DNA of 64,000 bases from a virus (lineage: Duplodnaviria; Caudoviricetes), in the IMG/VR virus record IMGVR_UViG_3300021431_000089, positions 47,103 to 111,102 of that record; one strand, 5' to 3'. Position numbers and translations under genes: made by a program. Every line of letters begins with the position of its first letter. The first letter of the stretch is position 1. The notes beneath the pieces were generated by a model, which was given only the letters and a program-made list of their open reading frames with translations, was not told the DNA's origin and made no database searches. Of the stretch, positions 4,817 through 60,302 are shown one piece after another.

Positions 4817-6916
4817 ATGGCAAATAAGTATTTGGATACCATCGGTTTAGGACATTTAGTTGATAAAATCAAGAGTAAGTTTGTTCCAAAAAGAGAGGGC
4901 GGACACGCATATAACAACGTTGCTTCGGCATATTCCAAAGATGCCCCAGGCTACTGGCGAATAACGCTGCCAACGGTGACGGCATATGAAATGCTTCAGA
5001 TTGAAATCGGCGTTCGACAGCACTATTACGTTCCATACTATGGAAAAATCATACTGCATGCATATCATAATAATACATCGCCATACGATTGGCGCCAGTT
5101 CAAAGCCACTTTAATAGGCGAGTTTAACGAAAACTTACAAATCTACGGAAGTGAAGGGAAATACTTTTACATTGCGGGATGCGCTGAATACTCGGCTATA
5201 AGTGTGGATAAGATCCTTGTTGGCGACAGTGCCATTTATTCTGATCTTTCAAATGTTGTGATAGACCACGTGTCCGCATTACCGAGTACTAAACAACAGG
5301 CAACCCTAACACGTATGGTGACTGGTGTAAAAGGTAATAACGAATCTACATATAGTACCGGCAATGTAAATCTTACGGCGGATAAAATAGGTGCTTTTGA
5401 AAAACAGCCATACGCTGAAGGTACTCTTGAGGCTGGGATCAGACCGTACGTCGATTTCGCAAGGGCTAATAGGCTTGCGTTTTTACCGGCAGACCAAATT
5501 ATTATTGAGCAGACAACTGATGGTGGAGAAACATGGACTTCTGCTGAAATAACAGATGCCACAAAAGAATCATTATTCTCTGAATTTAGTACGCCGGTCA
5601 ACATACCTTTGTTAAATAACCAGAAATCAACGTCTTGTGGATTGAGAATTACTATTACTGGCATGAAATATAATGTTCCATCGGGAACTGCGGAGACGGA
5701 AAAGTACAACTATTGGAATAGCGAGTATTTCAAAAGTACCGAAAGATATTTTAACGTCAGAGAATGGTGGTTTTGGTTATCTTCGACTGGCGACCGTATT
5801 AGACCACAGATATTTTATGCAACGGGGAATAAGCCGAACGACTGGAAAACCTGTTTTGATAAAGATTTCAGAATGAATGGATGGTCTGGATCAGACTGGA
5901 TCAGAGCTGGAAGCGGCATGGCTTTTGGTGGTTATACCGGTCAATTCGATCAACCGTGGAATTGGAGACTAATATTTTGGAGTGCCACAAAAGAAAATCG
6001 AGATACATTCATCAGTGCGTCAGTACAGAACATTCAACAGATAAGATGTTACGGCGACAGTGTTTGGACGGCCGCAAACTGGTTAATGCGTCATGATCAT
6101 TTATACACATGGGATTCGCAACAAAATGTTGCATTCCCAGCAAATGTTAGAGCCACTCAATTTACAGGTGCTCTTAACGGAACCGCGACAAATGCGTCAA
6201 AAGTCAATAACCACACAGTCAACTCAGACGTTCCTGCAAATGCCGTTTTCACCGACACGGTCACCACAGCTTCTACAACTGGAACTGGTAATGCGGTAAC
6301 GGCTATCACGGCTTCCAACGGAGCATTAACTGTGACTAAGGGCACAACGTTCTTGACATCACATCAAGATATTTCCGGCAAGGCTGATAAGTCGGCCACC
6401 GTTTCCACCGTCGCGTGGGATTCGGCAAATAAAAAACTGACGAAAACAATTAACGGCACAACAACAGATGTTGTAGCAGGCTCGGCAATTCTTAGCGGGT
6501 TAACCAAATCGCAGGTAACGACAGCGCTTGGATATACACCGCCTGAAACAGACACAGTTGCCACTGTGACAACAACTGGTTCGGGAAATGCAATTACAGC
6601 ATTGACGGCCACAAATGGCGCCATCACAGCAACACTTGGGGCTACATTCCTTACAGAGCATCAGGATATCTCAGGCAAGATGAATGTGCCAGTTGGCGGT
6701 AATGCAGGACAGGTGCTTACGAAAACAGCCACTGGTTATGAGTGGCGAGATCCCATTTCGCTTGAGGCATATGTCGCAGGCGAGGTAGTAACATTCGAAG
6801 ATGGTGTCGTTGATACAGCGACTGGAGGCGGTGGCGGTGTCACAGTAGAACAGGTTCAACAAATGATCAACGATGCAATTTCAGATATAACAGACGGAGA
6901 TGAGGTGAGTTATTAA
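4817..6916 (+). CDS. Tail fibre / receptor-binding protein
   Basis: 699 aa; repeated TGNA(V/I)TA.TA.NGA.T.T.G.TFLT.HQDISGK; TALGYTP; Trp-rich central globular domain. Confidence 0.7.
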   Translation: MANKYLDTIGLGHLVDKIKSKFVPKREGGHAYNNVASAYSKDAPGYWRITLPTVTAYEMLQIEIGVRQHYYVPYYGKIILHAYHNNTSPYDWRQFKATLIGEFNENLQIYGSEGKYFYIAGCAEYSAISVDKILVGDSAIYSDLSNVVIDHVSALPSTKQQATLTRMVTGVKGNNESTYSTGNVNLTADKIGAFEKQPYAEGTLEAGIRPYVDFARANRLAFLPADQIIIEQTTDGGETWTSAEITDATKESLFSEFSTPVNIPLLNNQKSTSCGLRITITGMKYNVPSGTAETEKYNYWNSEYFKSTERYFNVREWWFWLSSTGDRIRPQIFYATGNKPNDWKTCFDKDFRMNGWSGSDWIRAGSGMAFGGYTGQFDQPWNWRLIFWSATKENRDTFISASVQNIQQIRCYGDSVWTAANWLMRHDHLYTWDSQQNVAFPANVRATQFTGALNGTATNASKVNNHTVNSDVPANAVFTDTVTTASTTGTGNAVTAITASNGALTVTKGTTFLTSHQDISGKADKSATVSTVAWDSANKKLTKTINGTTTDVVAGSAILSGLTKSQVTTALGYTPPETDTVATVTTTGSGNAITALTATNGAITATLGATFLTEHQDISGKMNVPVGGNAGQVLTKTATGYEWRDPISLEAYVAGEVVTFEDGVVDTATGGGGGVTVEQVQQMINDAISDITDGDEVSY

Positions 6917-7677
6917 TGGCTAAGGTTTTAGTCACAGAATCATATCTTACAGCTATTGCCAATGCCATTAGAAACAAGCTTGGCGGTAGCGCAGCGTATA
7001 AGCCATCACAGATGGCAGATGCGATTTCAAGTATTCCGACAGGCGGCAGTGGTAAGCCCGAACAGACAAAGAACGCCACTCCATCCGAAACCGCCCAGAC
7101 GATCAAGCCTGACAGTGGTTATACACTTTCCAGTGTCACTGTAGGTGCGATTTCGTCAACGTATGTCGGCAGCGGCGTCGCCAGAAAATCATCTAGCAAT
7201 CTGACGGCTTCAGGTGCAACAGTGACAGTACCCGCCGGGTATTATTCTTCACAAGCGTCAAAGGCTGTTGCAGCGGCAACACAGGCAACACCAAGTATTA
7301 GTGTAAGTAGTGCCGGATTAATAACGGCCAGCGCTACACAAACCGCAGGATACGTTACTGCCGGAACTAAATCTGCAACAAAACAGTTAAGCACTGATAG
7401 CGGTTCAACAGTAACACCGACAAAGTCATCGCAGACGGTGTCTGTCAGTGGCAAATATATGACCGGGAATGTCGTTGTTAATGCGATTCCTGCAGCATAT
7501 ATCACTACCACTGACGCCACCGCCGGTGCGGGAGATATTTTATCCGGCGAGACTGCATACGTGAACGGCTCAAAGGTCACTGGAACTCTGCAAGTCCATA
7601 ATTATTACACAGGTACGGGCGACCCATCCTCTGCCACTGGAAACAATGGTGATCTATATTTAAAGGTGAATAGCTAA
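6916..7677 (+). CDS. Tail-associated structural protein
   Basis: LTAIANAIR.K N-terminus; DAT..AGDILSG.TAYVNG.KVTG motif; S/T/A-rich. Confidence 0.65.
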   Translation: MAKVLVTESYLTAIANAIRNKLGGSAAYKPSQMADAISSIPTGGSGKPEQTKNATPSETAQTIKPDSGYTLSSVTVGAISSTYVGSGVARKSSSNLTASGATVTVPAGYYSSQASKAVAAATQATPSISVSSAGLITASATQTAGYVTAGTKSATKQLSTDSGSTVTPTKSSQTVSVSGKYMTGNVVVNAIPAAYITTTDATAGAGDILSGETAYVNGSKVTGTLQVHNYYTGTGDPSSATGNNGDLYLKVNS

Positions 7678-50478: not shown

Positions 50479-50808
50479 CTAATCAAAGAACCCATCGTCT
50501 TCAAGTTTGTGCGCAAGCTTATCGATAAGCCGCCACACATCACCCAGGCCGACGGGGTTCCATTTACCCTCTTCTTTCTTCCAAAATTCGAGCGTGCTGC
50601 GTGGATCTAGCATTTCGAGGTAATGCAATACACCCCGCCATCCTTCATGAGGAAGTTTGATGGCGACCTCGGAGTCGATTTCAAAGTCGCGATCAATATA
50701 ATTGTAGATATTGTTCTCTCTTAAGAAGTTATCGAACCCGTAGTCATTGCAGAATTCGGCAATGTCATAGATATCCTTTACATCAGCATAAAACTCACCT
50801 TTATTCAT
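50479..50808 (-). CDS. Hypothetical protein, paralog of the N-terminal domain of 53653-54255
   Basis: Shared EF.....D..D...FC.D...D ... W ... E.W......W ... L..DGFF. Confidence 0.6.
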   Translation of the reverse strand: MNKGEFYADVKDIYDIAEFCNDYGFDNFLRENNIYNYIDRDFEIDSEVAIKLPHEGWRGVLHYLEMLDPRSTLEFWKKEEGKWNPVGLGDVWRLIDKLAHKLEDDGFFD

Positions 50809-51017: not shown

Positions 51018-52181
51018 CTAGCACTGGCTTGCCGCCTTAATATCTGCACGAAGGCAAGCCTCAACATTGACATTGAACTTATCACTGAGCTTCTTAATAA
51101 TCCCGTTGATAGTTTCTTTTTCAACCATCCGACAATAGGAAATATTTCCCTGCAAGACCTGAAGATCGCCGAGTTCCCAAGCAATTCCATGCTCTCTGTC
51201 TTTCACATATGACGTAATTGCAGCTTTCAGTTCACGTTTCCGTTTGCTACCGACCGTGATCTGATTGTCTTTATTGAGCATTACGCCGAGATTCCAATTC
51301 TGCCCGGCGCTTGAACCATACCTTGTCTTCTCTGCATTCAACCGATACGGGGCTTCAAATTCTGCAAGAACCTTATTGATCTCAGATTCCACTTCCCTGT
51401 AATCGAAACCATACTCAGAAGACACGAGGAAATCATCAGCATATCTCGTATAAACCAAACGCTGTTTCTTAAACTGATGGAGACGCTTGTTCAGTTCGTG
51501 ATCGATCGGCATCATAACGATGTTCGTCAGTAACGGACTCAACTGTGTTCCCTGCGGCAGACCGCCGTCCAAAAACCCGAGCTCTATAGCTTTCATTAAT
51601 GCCGGTCTTCCGGCGGTGTCTTCCATAATCATGTTGAATGGGTAGATGATACTTAACTGTTTAACGACAAACTCAAAAGTCGTATTGCCAAAGAAGTTTG
51701 ACAAATCATACTTGCCAAACCAGCGACTTTTATTTGCCTGATGTCTTTTCACAGAGTCAATATGCGACCTGCGCTTTATGTAAGCAAACGCTGTAGTGTG
51801 ATACAGCGGAATATCGTAGCACTGTAAGATCCCCTTTAACTCTATCAGCGCATTGGAAAGCTGCTCATTCGGTGCATCGATTTTGCGATACCCGTGAGAT
51901 CTTTTGGGGATGTAGAATGTTCTATAAAGCCTGTGACGATCGCCATCAAACAGTTCTGCATATTTTCTATTGAACGACTGTAACAATCCGATCATCGTGT
52001 TGATGTCAACGCCAACCCTTTCGGACATTCTACGGGATATTTTATCCTTGTCGATACGATAAGTGATGGTGTTTGTTCCGTTGCGATTTGTGTAGTGGAA
52101 ATTTACTTTACCCGAGAACAACTCCTCAAGTGTCATTCTGTGAACGACATATTTAGGAGCCGGTGTTGCTACATAAATCAT
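51018..52181 (-). CDS. Retron-type reverse transcriptase (387 aa)
   Basis: YRTFYIPKRS.G.R.I.AP; AFAY; SVKRH (region X variant); DLSNFF; LPQGTQLSP.LTN; YTRYADD; N.EKT; NLGV (VTG variant). Start placed at 52181 by the GGAAAGGAG RBS. Confidence 0.9.
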   Translation of the reverse strand: MIYVATPAPKYVVHRMTLEELFSGKVNFHYTNRNGTNTITYRIDKDKISRRMSERVGVDINTMIGLLQSFNRKYAELFDGDRHRLYRTFYIPKRSHGYRKIDAPNEQLSNALIELKGILQCYDIPLYHTTAFAYIKRRSHIDSVKRHQANKSRWFGKYDLSNFFGNTTFEFVVKQLSIIYPFNMIMEDTAGRPALMKAIELGFLDGGLPQGTQLSPLLTNIVMMPIDHELNKRLHQFKKQRLVYTRYADDFLVSSEYGFDYREVESEINKVLAEFEAPYRLNAEKTRYGSSAGQNWNLGVMLNKDNQITVGSKRKRELKAAITSYVKDREHGIAWELGDLQVLQGNISYCRMVEKETINGIIKKLSDKFNVNVEACLRADIKAASQC

Positions 52182-52203
52182 GATCTTCTCCTTTCCATTC
52201 ATT

Positions 52204-52505
52204 AACCCAATCTCATTCATTTTCCTGCTGCGACTCGCCGAGTCGTCTGGCTTGATCCGCCGGAATTTCGCGGTTGCGAAGCTGGTCGAAATGCCTACCA
52301 AGGAATATCTGATATATAATTCTCTGATTTTTTATCTTGTTCGAGGGTGTTTGGTCGGCGTGCCGTCTTTTTCAGGAAGTTCAGCCCGTGCAGGCGCATG
52401 TTCCGGACATCCTCCAGGGCACATACCCGTCCTCCATCTTCGATCAAGTTGTTACTTTCGCTGACAGCAAAAGCCCTATATGAAATATAGAAATTGCATT
52501 GGGTT
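52204..52505 (-). ncRNA. Retron-like msr-msd unit 1 (directly upstream of RT)
   Basis: Terminal IR AACCCAAT (52204-11)/ATTGGGTT (52498-505); G at 52497 in TGCAATTT; hairpin CTATAT-TTC-ATATAG; core 52445-52474. Confidence 0.82.
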
Positions 52506-52534: not shown

Positions 52535-52756
52535 TTACTTATTCTGCTTTTCGGCAAGCGGAACACACTTCTGTAAAGCCATGATGACATCTTTCAGCTC
52601 ATCTGAACCGACAATCCAGATATGCTGATCGGGGCCGCATTCATCATTCGCGTCGCAGATGGCTACATCTCCATCCGCATACTGCAATACTGTCAGTGTT
52701 CTGCCAACACTTTTAGTTTTCAGAAATTCTGTTGCGTCAAGTCTAAAATCCATCAT
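52535..52756 (-). CDS. Hypothetical protein
   Basis: AGGAGG RBS. Confidence 0.55.
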   Translation of the reverse strand: MMDFRLDATEFLKTKSVGRTLTVLQYADGDVAICDANDECGPDQHIWIVGSDELKDVIMALQKCVPLAEKQNK

Positions 52757-52775: not shown

Positions 52776-53450
52776 TCAAAATGCATCCAGTGTGAAGTGA
52801 AAGCCATCTACAATGGCGAACTTTTTGATTTCACCATTCTTCACGAAGTTGATAAAGTTGTTCACGCCGAGGGCGCAAACAAGCCTGACTGTTGTGGCAA
52901 CACCAAGCGTTACACCACAGGCAGAAACCGGTGTGTCCACATCCGCCTCGTCGGCGGTAAAATCCATGGAGTTCAACAGGTTCTGTTTCATTGCGACATC
53001 GCTCCAGTCTGCGGCATAATGCTGTGCAACTTCGAGCTCTGTTCTGAAATCAAACACCGCTTTTACCATCGGTGAGTTGAAGTGCTTCTTGACGAAATCC
53101 CTGCGGACATCGATTGAATCTGGGCACAGGAATACATAACCCGTAAGAAGTTTCCCTGTCCATCCTTCGGGCTTCGTCTGTACCTTCTCACATTCCGGGT
53201 TAATCTCACACAGGATTTCCTTCAAGGCATCAACCTTCGGCATACCCACATGACGCTGGAAGAACATCTGGTTAACAATGTTCTTCGGTTCAACCTTGTC
53301 GAAATCGTAGAGAACCATATCGGTGACCCCACATCTTGCGAGATTCTCAGCCAGCACTGAGCCGACTGAGCCGCAACCGATGATATGTACTTTGCCTTTG
53401 ATACTTGCCGGATCGAAATACTCTCTTGACTTTGATAAATCCATCTCCAT
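52776..53450 (-). CDS. ThiF/E1-like adenylyltransferase
   Basis: GCGSVGS, DFDKVE.KN..NQ, G.PKV.A, D....R, C-terminal SACG Cys; start MEMD after an AGGAGG RBS. Confidence 0.88.
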   Translation of the reverse strand: MEMDLSKSREYFDPASIKGKVHIIGCGSVGSVLAENLARCGVTDMVLYDFDKVEPKNIVNQMFFQRHVGMPKVDALKEILCEINPECEKVQTKPEGWTGKLLTGYVFLCPDSIDVRRDFVKKHFNSPMVKAVFDFRTELEVAQHYAADWSDVAMKQNLLNSMDFTADEADVDTPVSACGVTLGVATTVRLVCALGVNNFINFVKNGEIKKFAIVDGFHFTLDAF

Positions 53451-53652
53451 GATCGTTCCTCCTTTATTTATGATCTTTGTTTTCTTTAAGGCGTTGCATC
53501 TCTTCAATAAACCTGTCGTAGAGATAGTCAAACTTCGCATTGCTGAATGGCGTAGAAGAGATACTTTCGAGCAACCCAAAAGCCATTTGAGCAAGACTCA
53601 CGGCGCTCTTCGCTGGTCTCTCAGACCAATGCTCTATCATTTGGCTATACCC

Positions 53653-54255
53653 TTACCGCAAAACCGCAGAGAGATCCCCTGCGGTTAAGCGATTGCTTTC
53701 TTCGATGATTTTTCTGAATTCCTCATCAGCCTTCACGCTTGCATCATGTGCCGCACGGAGCTTTGCAAGGTTCATCGCAACCACCGTGTCGTATTGCGGA
53801 ACACCCTGCATTGAACTCAAGATTCCGCTGAAGTCGCCCGGCTCCAGATGGTCTTCCTCTGTGAAAGGATCTTCAATGTCGAGCAGGGGGCACTGTTCTT
53901 CGCCGTCATTATCCTCGTCCTCTGATCCATCTTCGAAGAAACCGTCATTATCGAGATACTCAAGCAGTTCGTTCTTCATATATTCGAATTCCGAATCATC
54001 AATGCCGACCCAGTCTCCGTAGTCGTCACGGCGCCAGTATTCATAGGTGCCCTGATCAGCAAGAGAGTTCAGAGTATCCTTGATATCGTACCAAGAATCG
54101 TACGAAACCGTTTCAGAGAGCCAGTCATTGATATACTCATCGCGTGCTTCGTCACTGTAGATGCATTCAGCGTGGCCATCATAGTTGTTGTCGAAACAGA
54201 AGTTCAAAAAATCACTTACATCTTCGATGTTGTCGATAAATTCCTGTCGATACAT
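53653..54255 (-). CDS. Highly acidic hypothetical protein within the Ubl cassette
   Basis: D/E-rich; AAAGGAG RBS; EPGDFSGIL and AGDLSAVL motifs. Confidence 0.65.
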   Translation of the reverse strand: MYRQEFIDNIEDVSDFLNFCFDNNYDGHAECIYSDEARDEYINDWLSETVSYDSWYDIKDTLNSLADQGTYEYWRRDDYGDWVGIDDSEFEYMKNELLEYLDNDGFFEDGSEDEDNDGEEQCPLLDIEDPFTEEDHLEPGDFSGILSSMQGVPQYDTVVAMNLAKLRAAHDASVKADEEFRKIIEESNRLTAGDLSAVLR

Positions 54256-54278
54256 AAAATTCTCCTTTCGTTATTTAT

Positions 54279-55088
54279 TTAGTCTTCCCATTCGGGATAA
54301 TTTGCTGCATAAGATTTTCCTGTGCCGACACCGTAGTACCCATATCCACCGTAAGGTTCATAGGTCGGATACCCACGATGATCCACATATGTAACGCCGC
54401 CATAATTTGGCTGTTTGGCGGCGACCGGCTTCGGCTTGCTTACCTTGACCATATCCTCTGCATCCGAGATAAATTCCATAAGCCCATCCGGTCTCCACTT
54501 AATATCGACATCCTTGGATTCGTAGAGGACATTGTCCTCAAGATCGTAGATGTTCATCCAACAATCCCCCTTACGATTCCATATTGAGAAGATGTAGAAC
54601 TGATTCGGCATGCCCTTCTGCAGATCACCGAGCCAGTCCTCATACATGGTCTTATCAACACTGGATGGTGAGGCCGTCATGTCAACATGTGAATGCCCGT
54701 GGAATCTGATGTTGTTGAATTCCTCATCAGGTCTCTGATAGAGCCACATATCAAATTCCTCTTTGTTTGTGTTTACCGTAGACCCAGTGACTTCCTGGGG
54801 ATAAACCATGATCCCATAAACCTCATAGCGACTCGCATATTCCTCATTGGGCTCGACCTTGCGAGCGAGGCAGTGCCAGCCGACCTCTTTGTCGGTGCAC
54901 GCAATAAGCGTTTTCATCTTTGCGAACGTGTCGCCATCGAAAACGACCTCTGCCTTCTTATCGATTTTGCCGAGGTCTTTCTCAAATTTAAATTTCCCGT
55001 CAGCCGCCTTGATACTTGCCAGCTTCTTTTCAAACTCTTCGCGAAGCTCTTTAATTTCGGCCTCGCCGACCATGATCCTTTTAGCCAT
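54279..55088 (-). CDS. JAB/JAMM (MPN+) metallo-isopeptidase
   Basis: E (KEVGW)...H-S-H-x7-S-x2-D (HSHVDMTASPSSVD), an exact JAMM motif. Confidence 0.85.
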   Translation of the reverse strand: MAKRIMVGEAEIKELREEFEKKLASIKAADGKFKFEKDLGKIDKKAEVVFDGDTFAKMKTLIACTDKEVGWHCLARKVEPNEEYASRYEVYGIMVYPQEVTGSTVNTNKEEFDMWLYQRPDEEFNNIRFHGHSHVDMTASPSSVDKTMYEDWLGDLQKGMPNQFYIFSIWNRKGDCWMNIYDLEDNVLYESKDVDIKWRPDGLMEFISDAEDMVKVSKPKPVAAKQPNYGGVTYVDHRGYPTYEPYGGYGYYGVGTGKSYAANYPEWED

Positions 55089-55107
55089 TCGTTTTCCTCT
55101 CTTTCTT

Positions 55108-56628
55108 CTATTCTTCCTCGTCAAGATATTTCAGCGCTCCTTCGATTGTTACCTCGGAACCATCCGGCAGAACAATACACTTCCTTGTATTGTAATTCGA
55201 AGCCAGATCAGACACCAATTCTCTGGTGACTGTTGAATCGAAGAAGTTCATAGTAGCGTTAGATGCCACACACTGATCTACAACACCCATCCAGTTACCA
55301 TCTGTGATATACTGCATCATCGTTTTCGCATAATCTCCGATGCACCCATGGTGGTAGATATGAGGATTTGGGAAGTAATCCTCAAACCCTGTTGGATCTG
55401 ACACGCCACTCAGTGCATGAACCTCGACATCTCTGACGGAAATTCTGTACGGCGCACACACTTTCAAGCGGAGACTCTCATCAATGAAAATCGCCTTTAA
55501 CAGCTTCGCAATTTTGCCTTCGAGTTTTGTGCCCGCAGAAGCTGAATAAATGTACGATCTGCGATTATCGATCAGCTCCTGCAATTGATCCGAATCATAA
55601 TATTCGAATAACCCATGACACAGGATTTCCATGGTACCCGTGCCGAATTCACGCACGTCAACCGAATCATTGTTTCTGATATATTCGGCGAATTCACCCG
55701 TCTGAGTGTTTTCCACGGCGAGTTCCAAGCCAGCAATGTATACAAGCTTTTCATTTACAGATCGTGTATACCTTCCGATTTCATCCATATACTCCTGAAT
55801 TCGACGTCTGATATCTGAAACCTCAGACTGTGCACGATCAATCTGATTACGCTGTGCGGAGACAAGGAAATCCTTGAGCCTCGAATCGACGTATGTTTCT
55901 TCAAACCCGAGCTGATCGGCAAATTCCTTCAGTAAAGACAGGTATCCATCCTTGTCTACTGAGTTCAGCTTTTCGAGCAGATTCAAAGACTCTCTATCAA
56001 GAGAGATAGACCCATCTGAACCCGCCCAATACCAGGGCATCAGCATCGGGATAACCGCCTGCAACCAATGAAACTTCTGATTATTTAATCTCGATGTAAT
56101 AACCATCGAGATTCTTTTTTCAGCATCTGTGAAAGCATACACTCCGAACTTTACACCGAAGAAGTATGTGATACTCGGCTGGTACTCCAGTTTAATCGGA
56201 ATCTCTTCACCAGTCCGTGATGTTACCGTTCCGCAATCAAAAACCGTACCGGCTGGGAGAAGATTACCATCTGATTTATCAAGGCCAAGGAAATTTTCGA
56301 GACCCTGTTTCAATACATCTGGCGCAGATCCCGTTTCGATAAACTCGAGACAACTGTCTACGCTGTTGTCTCTGCATCGCGCATACAGTCTTCTTATGCG
56401 ATAAGGGATATTTGATTCCTCCACAGGAGAACCGGTCTGCACTCCGAGAACCCTAACCTGTTCCCCGGAAACCTTTTTGTACAGCAGAAACCTCAGAGTC
56501 GCCAAAAGCGATTCATCAGATGTTGATCTTTCATCCGACAATTCAATACCAAGCGGATGTTCGGTGTTGAAAAACCAGCCTGCGGCCGGTGTAGTCAACG
56601 CTGTGTAGTTAATCCTGTCATTCCACAT
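55108..56628 (-). CDS. Large protein with coiled coil and C-terminal prokaryotic E2-like domain
   Basis: FPNPHIYHHGCIGDY resembles the E2 HP(N/H)...CLG active site; lies between Ubl and JAB. Confidence 0.6.
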   Translation of the reverse strand: MWNDRINYTALTTPAAGWFFNTEHPLGIELSDERSTSDESLLATLRFLLYKKVSGEQVRVLGVQTGSPVEESNIPYRIRRLYARCRDNSVDSCLEFIETGSAPDVLKQGLENFLGLDKSDGNLLPAGTVFDCGTVTSRTGEEIPIKLEYQPSITYFFGVKFGVYAFTDAEKRISMVITSRLNNQKFHWLQAVIPMLMPWYWAGSDGSISLDRESLNLLEKLNSVDKDGYLSLLKEFADQLGFEETYVDSRLKDFLVSAQRNQIDRAQSEVSDIRRRIQEYMDEIGRYTRSVNEKLVYIAGLELAVENTQTGEFAEYIRNNDSVDVREFGTGTMEILCHGLFEYYDSDQLQELIDNRRSYIYSASAGTKLEGKIAKLLKAIFIDESLRLKVCAPYRISVRDVEVHALSGVSDPTGFEDYFPNPHIYHHGCIGDYAKTMMQYITDGNWMGVVDQCVASNATMNFFDSTVTRELVSDLASNYNTRKCIVLPDGSEVTIEGALKYLDEEE

Positions 56629-56663
56629 TGTTTTCTCCTTTCATGTGATCGTTCATAATTAAT

Positions 56664-56740
56664 TGGGGAGGAGGGGATTCGAACCCCTCGAGTGCCAAAA
56701 GAAAGGAAAACGATCATGAATTTTAATTATTTACTCCCCA
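56664..56740 (-). ncRNA. Second tRNA-like element (acceptor + T-arm; no D or anticodon arm)
   Basis: GGGGAG...AGGGG-TTCGAAT-CCCCT-CCTCCCC-A with an unstructured AT-rich middle. Confidence 0.5.
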
Positions 56741-56744
56741 TGAG

Positions 56745-56763
56745 AAAGGGGCCGAAGCCCCTA
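56745..56763 (-). terminator. Terminator-like cUUCGg hairpin
   Basis: AGGGGC-TTCG-GCCCCT-TTC on - strand. Confidence 0.6.
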
Positions 56764-56940
56764 CGGTTGGCGGGTGCCCTACTTTCAGACACCGGGATCA
56801 TTCCCATTGTTTTACACCGCGGGAGCGCCACGGAAGCGGGCCAACCACGTCCGCCTAGTTTGAGGATTTAATGGCCTGTCAAGCAGGCGTTATCCTCAGC
56901 CGATTCGGGTAATACCCTATCGACCACACCTTTTATAACA

Positions 56941-56960
56941 AGGGGTGCCGAAGCACCCCT
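56941..56960 (-). terminator. cUUCGg hairpin after the Ubl gene
   Basis: AGGGGTGC-TTCG-GCACCCCT-TGTT on - strand. Confidence 0.6.
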
Positions 56961-56974
56961 GTGTTACCTACCCG

Positions 56975-57220
56975 TTAGGCATTCTGTGAGTTCTTGACAG
57001 AAGCGAGATATGCACGTCCGGTGATACCAAGTTCACCGAATGTGTGATCCAGATCACCACGGGAACGCTTGACGGATGTTCCATTCAGTGTGAACATCTC
57101 TGTCTGGTCGAACACGACGCCCTCTTCAGCCGCCATTTCGATTGCCTTTGCCAGTGTTGTGTCCTCGGTGACCATCAGTGTTCTTCTATCAGTTGTATTT
57201 CCTACGATTGCCTGTAACAT
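56975..57220 (-). CDS. Ubiquitin-like (beta-grasp) protein
   Basis: 81 aa; beta-beta-alpha pattern (V...TTL....E; F.LNG....LD.TF.ELGI....L); ends -KNSQNA. Confidence 0.7.
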   Translation of the reverse strand: MLQAIVGNTTDRRTLMVTEDTTLAKAIEMAAEEGVVFDQTEMFTLNGTSVKRSRGDLDHTFGELGITGRAYLASVKNSQNA

Positions 57221-57413: not shown

Positions 57414-57809
57414 TTAGAGAACTTCGATCTTCTCCATCGCCTTTTCGACCTTCAGATCGATGGCTGTGAGGGAAGCCGGAATTGCATCTTCGATTTCCGC
57501 GAGCTTGGTGAGAGTGCCAGCGAAAGCCTCGGCGAGCTGCTTCTTAACCTCGTCGGCTGTGGTATCAGCACCGAAGCACATCTTGATTGTGGCAATCGCG
57601 TTGCCGTTCAGATCAGGCTTCGGAGAGAATTCCACGCCGTATGCGGAGATGTTACCCTCGCCGCTTCCGATAGCGACCGCGAAGACAGGATCACCCTCTT
57701 CGTCTTTGAGACAGAGGATTTCCGGGTCGAAGGACTGAACCTTCTTGATGTCGTCGAGCTTAGCGCTCACGAGTGTGGCCTGATGGCCGGAGATAACGAA
57801 TTTTGCCAT
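57414..57809 (-). CDS. Hypothetical protein
   Basis: AGGAGG RBS; own terminator. Confidence 0.7.
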   Translation of the reverse strand: MAKFVISGHQATLVSAKLDDIKKVQSFDPEILCLKDEEGDPVFAVAIGSGEGNISAYGVEFSPKPDLNGNAIATIKMCFGADTTADEVKKQLAEAFAGTLTKLAEIEDAIPASLTAIDLKVEKAMEKIEVL

Positions 57810-57920: not shown

Positions 57921-58409
57921 TTAGATGGCGACTGGAAACCCCCACTTGAGGAGTATATCCTCTGCTGAAAGCCGCAGATCTTCACGCATATCCTCATAGA
58001 AAGGATCAAGAACTGATGCACCCGGGGAAATCTGTGCGATGAATTCATCGATAACGTCTCCATTTAAACCCGAGACACCGCTCGGTTCATAAGCAAGCTC
58101 GTCTTCGTCATCGAAGTCATCAAAATCATGTGGAATATCATCATCCACCGGCTCTGTCATATAGAAATCATATAAATATGTCAGCTCGTCTTCGAAACGC
58201 TGCTTTGACAAAACCGTTTCATCATATTCCGGTTCGCTATCGTCTCTTTTATCAAAGACCATAAGATGTGCGCCAGCACTTGAGGCGTCCAGCGTGATCC
58301 GATAGCGATCACTTTCTGCAATCGTGCGTCCTTGCTTCTGAAGCTCTGCAAATTTATTGCAGAACCCAGCCCATGCTTTATCGATGGGCAATTTGATTGT
58401 CGGCTCCAT
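57921..58409 (-). CDS. Acidic hypothetical protein
   Basis: D/E-rich ORF with RBS. Confidence 0.55.
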   Translation of the reverse strand: MEPTIKLPIDKAWAGFCNKFAELQKQGRTIAESDRYRITLDASSAGAHLMVFDKRDDSEPEYDETVLSKQRFEDELTYLYDFYMTEPVDDDIPHDFDDFDDEDELAYEPSGVSGLNGDVIDEFIAQISPGASVLDPFYEDMREDLRLSAEDILLKWGFPVAI

Positions 58410-59726: not shown

Positions 59727-60302
59727 TCATATCAAAACCCCTTCAGCAAGGCATACATTCCTAGAAATCCTGAATGCCGTAATGTGGCACACGTAACCAG
59801 GTTTGATTCCGAAATCATCGAAGGAATGCTCAAGATCTTTGGAACCAAGAGGAATACCGTTCAGCCCGAATGGCCCGCACTCTGAAAAATCGACTTCGGA
59901 TTCCGTTATTACATCTTTCAATGTACGCTCGGGAACCACGTCCAAAGACCGGCGTTCAAATGAATTACCAACAACCACGCGAATGTGACCATCAGCGATA
60001 GGCTCTCGAATGACAGGAGGGGCGGTTTCATTATCCTTAGATTCATCGAATTCCTCGTCTTCATCATCCCCGCACTGATACGCGGCCGCCTCAGATTCCC
60101 AAGCCTTTCTCATCTTATCGATGCTCCCGTATCTTTTTGGAGCTTCATAACGGAGATATGCATCAGACCCCGCCTCATAGCGTTCGTTATTAATCTGTTC
60201 TACAAAATCCTCAAGCTCTGACTCTTCGGCTAAAACCAGCCCTTCAAAGCTCTCGCCCTCATAATTATATTCATCGATTAGGGCGAACCATTTCTTTGCC
60301 AT
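59727..60302 (-). CDS. Acidic protein with C-terminal ubiquitin-like domain paralogous to 56975-57220
   Basis: VVGNSFERR.L.V....TL...F.LNG.....DL.H.F...GI aligns with the Ubl (IVGNTTDRR.L.V...TL...F.LNG...DLDHTF..LGI). Confidence 0.65.
   Translation of the reverse strand: MAKKWFALIDEYNYEGESFEGLVLAEESELEDFVEQINNERYEAGSDAYLRYEAPKRYGSIDKMRKAWESEAAAYQCGDDEDEEFDESKDNETAPPVIREPIADGHIRVVVGNSFERRSLDVVPERTLKDVITESEVDFSECGPFGLNGIPLGSKDLEHSFDDFGIKPGYVCHITAFRISRNVCLAEGVLI

Follow-up and report, generated by a model that had tools for sequence, protein, structure and literature searches.

The Bil, CBASS Cap2/Cap3 and Bub systems are host-encoded conjugation systems linked to anti-phage immunity. In Bil, the genes follow the order ubiquitin-like protein (Ubl), E2, deubiquitinase (DUB), E1 (PMC10557695). 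A gene block that shares this order, and that also includes a retron-type reverse transcriptase (RT), is present in IMG/VR virus record IMGVR_UViG_3300021431_000089 (111,102 bp; CheckV completeness, 94%); the window analyzed here comprises 64,000 nucleotides, bases 47103 to 111102 of that record. We read the block as a phage-borne Bil-type ubiquitin-like conjugation module that is the fixed partner of the RT in a large group of gut phages, a reading to which we give a probability of roughly 0.55. The original prediction, made from the window sequence, had described a complete phage-encoded cassette of Ubl, E2-like, JAB and E1 proteins directly upstream of a retron. The 111-kb, 94% complete virus record bears out the phage origin, and the block of Ubl, 506-aa protein, JAB protease, acidic protein, E1 and RT was confirmed by its open reading frames (ORFs), by its motifs and by its recurrence in related contigs. 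All of the ORFs that had been listed were present at the positions given for them, and the whole block lies on the minus strand. The word "complete" holds only in part, because Ubl, E1 and JAB are well supported while the E2 member was assigned indirectly and has no match to an E2 hidden Markov model (HMM). The core genes are as follows, in the order of transcription.

56975..57220, minus strand: Ubl, 81 aa, C-terminus ...SQNA
55108..56628, minus strand: 506-aa three-part protein at the E2 position (residues 421 to 431 at 55336-55368; C429 at 55342-55344)
54279..55124, minus strand: divergent JAMM/JAB metalloprotease (motif at 54654-54695 and E80 at 54885-54887; probable start at 55088)
53653..54255, minus strand: 200-aa acidic protein, a movable block member (HMM presence across loci)
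52776..53453, minus strand (ORF open to 53594): minimal ThiF-type E1 of about 225 aa (GCGSVG at 53361-53378; invariant Cys at 52917-52919)
51018..52301, minus strand: retron-type RT, the constant downstream partner (RVT_1, retron St85, PADLOC RT_II-A)

Comparison with described systems

Bil is the closest known system, yet two features that define Bil are missing from the block: an E1 of several domains and a Gly at the C-terminus of the tag. BilABCD (Bacterial ISG15-like; types I and II; PMC10557695) is found in bacterial defense islands, whereas the block is phage-encoded. The Bil tag has a conserved Gly, whereas the tag of the block ends in Asn-Ala, and the Bil E1 is built from IAD, AAD and CYS domains, whereas the E1 of the block is a single adenylation domain of 225 aa that has no IAD, CYS domain or zinc site. 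BilB carries Cys138 followed by His151, in contrast to the protein at the E2 position of the block, which is 506 aa long and has the His before the Cys (NPH-x5-C). The block also differs from Bil in always being joined to the RT and to a 131-aa protein (p131), and often to a tRNA.

The block shares a ThiF-type adenylation domain and a JAB protease with the Cap2/Cap3 proteins of type II CBASS. In contrast to CBASS, it has no CD-NTase match, its E1 and 506-aa protein are separate genes rather than a fusion as in Cap2, and its Ubl is a free substrate. Alignments made with hhalign to a single Cap2 E2 domain (E value, 0.43) and to Cap3 (E value, 0.19) matched the active-site motifs but were not significant. 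Identity with CBASS was rejected for the lack of a CD-NTase and of an E1-E2 fusion. The PRTRC cassettes of plasmids and integrative and conjugative elements (NCBIfam TIGR03735-03742) are likewise mobile-element cassettes with ThiF-, E2-, JAB- and Ubl-like genes; PRTRC identity was rejected in turn, the PRTRC_ThiF model scoring 20.3 bits against a cut-off of 144.75 and no other PRTRC model matching the block proteins. Retrons combine an RT with an msr-msd RNA and an effector. The RT of the block is closest to retron RTs and has accessory genes in fixed linkage, whereas it falls under the NCBIfam cut-off and its carrier is a phage. No retron type known to us is partnered with Ubl, E1 and JAB genes, and none came up in literature searches.

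Ubl, E1 and JAMM protease

What the computations show directly is the fold or family of Ubl and of E1, the JAMM motif, the residues that never vary and the conserved order of the cassette genes and the RT. The standard libraries recognize just two of the block proteins, the E1 and the RT. The 81-aa protein was modeled with AlphaFold2 from an alignment of 37 homologs from related loci; the model (predicted local distance difference test [pLDDT] score, 86) has the element order of a beta-grasp fold (beta-beta-alpha-beta-beta-beta). Its best Foldseek matches were NEDD8, FAT10, SUMO and ubiquitin (probability, 1.00; TM score, 0.6 to 0.76), and all of the top Foldseek and VIA-align matches were ubiquitin-like proteins, including the Bil Ubl. 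The predicted fold and the top structure matches therefore agree on a ubiquitin-like beta-grasp protein, as had been proposed from the sequence.

The most conserved region of the Ubl family is its C-terminus, ...VKADNA. The end ADNA was present in 48 of 82 copies, about a dozen of the 82 carried one to three residues past NA (A, R, AA or GQ), and N80 and A81 were nearly invariant, the copy in the window ending in SQNA. A C-terminal Gly or Gly-Gly is absent from the family. The -QNA end, which had been taken to imply Ala-terminal conjugation or JAB trimming, thus belongs to a family-wide ...DNA end that is compatible with Ala-terminal activation or with trimming by the JAB protease. The Bil JAB trims residues after the conserved Gly of its Ubl (PMC10557695); by analogy, the tails in the phage family would mark a tag that a protease trims to expose its end, here Asn-Ala. 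Together, the ...DNA ends, the one- to three-residue tails and the natural fusions of Ubl to p131 found in some relatives form the signature of a processed, activatable C-terminus. A second Ubl domain is encoded farther upstream, at residues 107 to 168 of a 191-aa protein (59727-60302; Ubl HMM E value, 1.6e-14), and in this protein the sequence continues beyond the NA position (..SRNVCLAEGVLI). In one relative (L016:7152-7400) the Ubl ORF ends in ...VKAD at a TGA that is followed by codons for LAGNAK, which may reflect a read-through, an indel or a broken copy.

The E1 matched the Pfam ThiF model (PF00899) with 78.1 bits against a cut-off of 28.1 (E value, 7.4e-22). Its matches in the PDB were UBA5 (4.7e-13), MoeB, MccB and Cap2, the best NCBIfam matches were ThiF and MoeB, and the PADLOC E1-E2 models matched at 1e-18. 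Members of the family are 223 to 229 aa long and consist of a single adenylation domain, in which the glycine motif GCGSVG and the Cys in P.SAC were invariant across 58 sequences; we take this Cys, a candidate for thioester formation, to occupy the position of the MoeB/ThiF crossover-loop Cys. The ThiF match above the cut-off and the glycine motif sustain the identification as a ThiF-type E1 in the original prediction. Since the relatives are 223 to 229 aa long, translation probably starts at MEMDL (about position 53450) rather than at 53594.

The 281-aa JAB protein had 37 homologs. In an alignment of 29 sequences, consisting of the window protein and 28 homologs, E80, H144, S145, H146, S154 and D157 were invariant, which gives the exact E...HSHx7SxxD motif. 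The best PDB match of the family profile was Rpn11 (E value, 0.048), aligned across the JAMM motif, and a PADLOC JAB model matched the window protease at 2e-3. No Pfam JAB model matched the window protein, and the Prok-JAB model was reached by one of the 29 members (3.4e-3). With the JAMM motif intact and the scores below the Pfam thresholds, the family represents a divergent JAMM protease, so that the exact motif described at the outset is upheld across the alignment. The protein probably starts at MAKRI (55088). The tails of the family (54279-54500 in the window) are variable, low-complexity sequences rich in Tyr, Gly and Asp, and a YP(D/E)W motif is conserved at the tail end in the closest relatives of the window.

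Linkage of the cassette with the reverse transcriptase

The RT matched RVT_1 (4.6e-16), PADLOC RT_II-A (5e-42) and the NCBIfam model for the retron St85 RT (6e-47), the latter with 160 bits and hence under the cut-off of 235. A scan of viral contigs with a single protein and a first scan with an alignment returned nothing, and a metagenome scan returned two short contigs. A sub-alignment of the 506-aa family yielded 80 viral loci and 22 loci in metagenome-assembled genomes (MAGs), which are mostly bins labeled Clostridia, Oscillospiraceae or Lachnospiraceae. Searched with HMMs built from the window proteins, nearly all of these loci had the order Ubl, 506-aa protein, JAB, (acidic protein), E1, RT. 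Most of the loci missing a block member were interrupted by the contig end; in one locus (L060) the RT lay about 6 kb farther on, and in another (L086) there was no RT within 5.8 kb. A search centered on the RT gave 246 relatives, and among the best 80 the E1 was found in every locus with sufficient upstream flank, together with the rest of the cassette where the flank extended farther. Linkage of the cassette and the RT across phage genomes, which the original prediction had put forward as a check, was thus found in essentially every related contig with enough flank. Literature searches returned nothing relevant on the pairing of a Ubl kit with an RT, and among GenBank phages there was one distant, unannotated homolog of the 506-aa protein (MT835544.1).

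An order that recurs in about 100 independent contigs cannot be due to chance. When 49 non-redundant loci, each 14 kb or longer, were compared, the only families present in more than 30 loci were those of the block itself, the next commonest being present in 21 and 18. The block order persists while the 506-aa protein drops to 25 to 30% identity and the flanking genes vary, and this retention lends support to the earlier suggestion that the cassette and the RT are one functional system. That suggestion stands only in part, as synteny within one lineage would give the same pattern. It is possible, if somewhat doubtful, that the cassette and the RT have two separate functions and are syntenic through one phage lineage with a conserved early region. 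All of the loci come from similar phage contigs (60 to 135 kb), E1 and RT lie anywhere from about 0.2 to 6 kb apart, the acidic gene may occupy either of two positions, and no sequence feature directly ties the cassette proteins to the RT, all of which fit separate functions; such an explanation has to accommodate an order that is kept at 25 to 30% identity amid flanking gene turnover, and the finding that, in loci with enough flank, the RTs of the clade were always accompanied by the cassette and cassettes almost always by an RT.

A candidate E2 and the points against it

The 506-aa protein lies between the Ubl and JAB genes, the position of the E2 in the Bil order. The family is very large. 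A profile search of 1.84 billion representatives, clustered at 50% identity, gave 2189 clusters at an E value of 1e-3 or less and 890 at 1e-30 or less, most of them with proteins of about 480 aa; none of ten clusters that were looked up had a family name. In 146 diverse members the only invariant residues were D38, H187, W199, H423 and C429, with N421 nearly so. The last His and Cys, with N421, belong to the motif NPHIYHHGCIG (residues 421 to 431), in which a catalytic-type Cys follows an HPN-like loop, with a spacing that differs from that of canonical E2 proteins (HPN-x(7-8)-C). The AlphaFold2 model (pLDDT, 94.2) has three parts, namely, an alpha/beta N-terminal domain (residues 1 to 200), a helix of 65 residues, and a C-terminal domain. 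The elements of the C-terminal domain are predicted to run in the order two strands, helical insert, two strands, NPH loop, C429 and three helices, a modeled topology compatible with a UBC core.

Two further kinds of evidence point toward an E2. In a language-model search, the C-terminal domain of a homolog from the main clade was the neighbor of a viral cluster in which 44% of the members carry Prok-E2_D (score, 0.90; 178 shared features), and a second language-model search gave a weaker version of this lead. Complex prediction paired the Ubl with the 506-aa protein at a score of 0.54, against 0.00 for the best of three controls; the runs agreed in at least 79% of contacts, and the pLDDT of the partner was at least 86. 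This is weak support: in a benchmark, 58 of 80 solved complexes and 2 of 110 mismatched pairs attained the mark, and passes at 0.60 or under comprised 7 of those 80 solved complexes and both of the mismatched pairs. The Bil-like position, the invariant His-x5-Cys, the Prok-E2_D neighbor and the weak complex pass with the Ubl favor an E2 role, and on these grounds the 506-aa protein is probably the E2 of the block.

Fold searches added little. Neither the protein nor profiles of the whole protein and of its C-terminal domain matched the PDB or Pfam, and the protein had no NCBIfam or PHROG match. Foldseek of the whole model against the PDB gave no match at an E value of 0.001 or less, a wide VIA-align search was dominated by coiled coils on residues 252 to 309, and the single BFVD match was an uncharacterized phage homolog. 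These whole-model searches were taken up by the long helix or by weak matches to the N-terminal domain, so that the C-terminal domain was not probed by them. Stand-alone relatives of the C-terminal domain were six short proteins, several of them on short contigs, and had no Pfam label. PF20298 had no relevant match in the phage records, and Prok-E2_B was not found in 401 genomes of the phylum of a block-carrying MAG or in control genomes.

Several observations weigh against a Bil-type conjugation module. The tag ends in Asn-Ala, not in Gly. The E1 has no CYS domain, UFD or zinc site, zinc-binding cysteine pairs being absent, and the JAB family scores under the Pfam thresholds. None of the E2 HMMs of Pfam, NCBIfam and PADLOC (UQ_con, Prok-E2_A to E, and E2-ntca) matched the 506-aa protein or its relatives, PF14460 gave no match even at an E value of 10 or less in six phage records (this phage and five relatives), and the hhalign comparison with the one Cap2 E2 domain pairs Cys with Cys, but only at the E value of 0.43 given above. 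Finally, all of the related contigs may share one phage lineage, and conserved order alone is thus no proof of joint function with the RT.

The absence of an E2 match could mean that the block has no E2 and that the Ubl, E1 and JAMM protease act alone, as in the archaeal SAMP/UbaA or Thermus TtuB/TtuC systems, the 506-aa protein being a Cys-His hydrolase, a target or an adaptor. This is unlikely in view of the invariant His-x5-Cys in a loop behind a four-strand sheet, the constant position of the 506-aa gene between those for Ubl and JAB, and the Prok-E2_D lead with the weak complex pass. A sulfur-carrier or adenylation system, in which the E1 would thiocarboxylate or otherwise modify the C-terminus of the Ubl (as in ThiS/ThiF, MoaD/MoeB, CysO/Mec+, or MccB acting on a C-terminal Asn) and a nucleic acid such as the neighboring tRNA or the retron DNA product would be modified, is very unlikely, as sulfur carriers end in Gly-Gly and the tag does not, its fold is matched best by ubiquitin, SUMO, NEDD8 and the Bil Ubl and not by ThiS or MoaD, no sulfurtransferase or rhodanese was found in the block with Pfam and NCBIfam, and the Ubl-protein fusions point to processing at the protein level.

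A proposed mechanism

The chemical steps of the Bil-type conjugation module set out here are all inferred, as are the action of the 506-aa protein as an E2, the choice of targets and any coupling in function between the cassette and the retron. The JAMM protease would free the ...N-A end of the tag from its short tails and, in some phages, from the Ubl-p131 fusion, and it would probably later also strip the tag from targets. The minimal E1, of homodimer type, would adenylate the C-terminal Ala and load the tag on the invariant Cys of the crossover-loop region, from which the tag would be transferred to Cys429 of the 506-aa protein, with the C-terminal domain serving as the E2. The N-terminal domain and the long helix may stand in for an E3 and choose targets. 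The tag would then be joined to lysines of the targets, for which p131, the acidic proteins and host proteins are candidates. The original prediction had further suggested that the phage may conjugate host or phage targets for counter-defense or superinfection exclusion; such a role is speculative.

A more far-reaching and tentative idea, which on balance seems rather unlikely, is that Ubl kit and retron are parts of a single machine, with protein tagging as the effector or regulatory arm of the retron. The reverse-transcribed DNA might, for instance, determine how the Ubl or the 506-aa ligase acts on the RT-DNA complex, p131 or host defense proteins. The tRNA-Leu and multiple template RNAs would be further parts of such a machine.

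Other members of the block

The remaining features of the region are listed below.

59727..60302, minus strand: 191-aa protein with an acidic N-terminal half and the second Ubl domain at residues 107 to 168 (Ubl HMM)
57921..58409, minus strand: 162-aa acidic protein, a conserved upstream block member (family HMM and composition)
57414..57809, minus strand: p131, a 131-aa core member directly upstream of Ubl (HMM; fused behind the Ubl domain in some relatives)
56629..56974, minus strand: structured 346-nt spacer with a putative tRNA remnant (fold z-score; T-arm hairpin at about 56670-56688)
52535..52756, minus strand: 73-aa ORF between E1 and RT, probably not a conserved gene (relatives search)
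50479-50808: 109-aa paralog of the 200-aa acidic protein, downstream of the RT (HMM)
L063:6462-7082, L064:6443-7063, and L066:6119-6736 and 6848-7480: natural Ubl-p131 fusions in relatives

The p131 protein is a core member of the block. Searched with its HMM, 95 of 104 loci (or 55 of 60 after removal of redundancy) contained p131, always just upstream of Ubl and on the same strand; it belongs to no Pfam or PDB family. In L063, L064 and L066, p131 follows in frame directly behind the ...VKADNA(A) of the Ubl domain, and L066 has two such fusions and one free Ubl. These in-frame fusions are a Rosetta-stone link that marks p131 as a processing partner or candidate target.

Acidic proteins recur around the cassette. 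Of 49 non-redundant loci, 40 encode a member of a family of about 203 aa at about -1.9 kb relative to the 506-aa gene, and the HMM of this family matched the 162-aa ORF of the window (1.9e-11), a protein with 40 Asp and Glu against 14 Lys and Arg residues. The 200-aa acidic protein has 55 Asp and Glu residues, and its gene was found in 59 of 82 loci, where it either follows JAB and precedes E1 or lies downstream of the RT. The 109-aa protein at 50479-50808 is a paralog of its N-terminal part (HMM E value, 6e-13). The 73-aa ORF had a homolog in 0 of the 82 related loci.

The 346-nt spacer between the Ubl and 506-aa genes folds better than shuffled controls (z, -3.1), with a T-arm-like hairpin at its end. 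The spacer of the window had no tRNA call and no Rfam match. At the same spot, ARAGORN found a tRNA-Leu(UAA) in at least 17 relatives and a tRNA-Met in three, and a tRNA T-loop motif was present in 34 of 56 relatives. Judged by these sequence features, the window spacer seems to keep a decayed tRNA remnant. No promoter or terminator pattern stood out.

Habitat and carriers

Gut metagenomes of sheep, goat and bovine origin, sampled in several studies, contain the stretch. Three RNA libraries, from two studies, yielded contigs with 100% identity to it, although DNA carry-over into these libraries is possible. One contig of 1,002 nt spans p131 and Ubl, while the spacer and the 506-aa, JAB and acidic genes are covered in part by others; the E1 and RT lie outside the matched contigs, which is uninformative either way. 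Among the carriers, a related 117-kb record (L007; IMGVR_UViG_2921473944_000002) is classed as a provirus by IMG/VR, and one MAG contig with the block (L085) is 359 kb long, so that some carriers may be temperate.

Implications

In the phage block the virus itself carries the putative conjugation kit, and it does so in a very large uncultured family: at 50% identity, the 506-aa protein falls into 2189 clusters. The tag of this kit has an unusual end, Asn-Ala; the E1 is minimal, the candidate E2/E3 is built of three parts, and the kit is firmly tied to a retron-type RT. If the proposed chemistry is true, viruses as well as hosts would make use of tagging with ubiquitin-like proteins, the E1 and the 506-aa protein would constitute a small E1/E2 pair whose substrate does not end in glycine, and the block would offer a testable case of the use of a retron to a phage.

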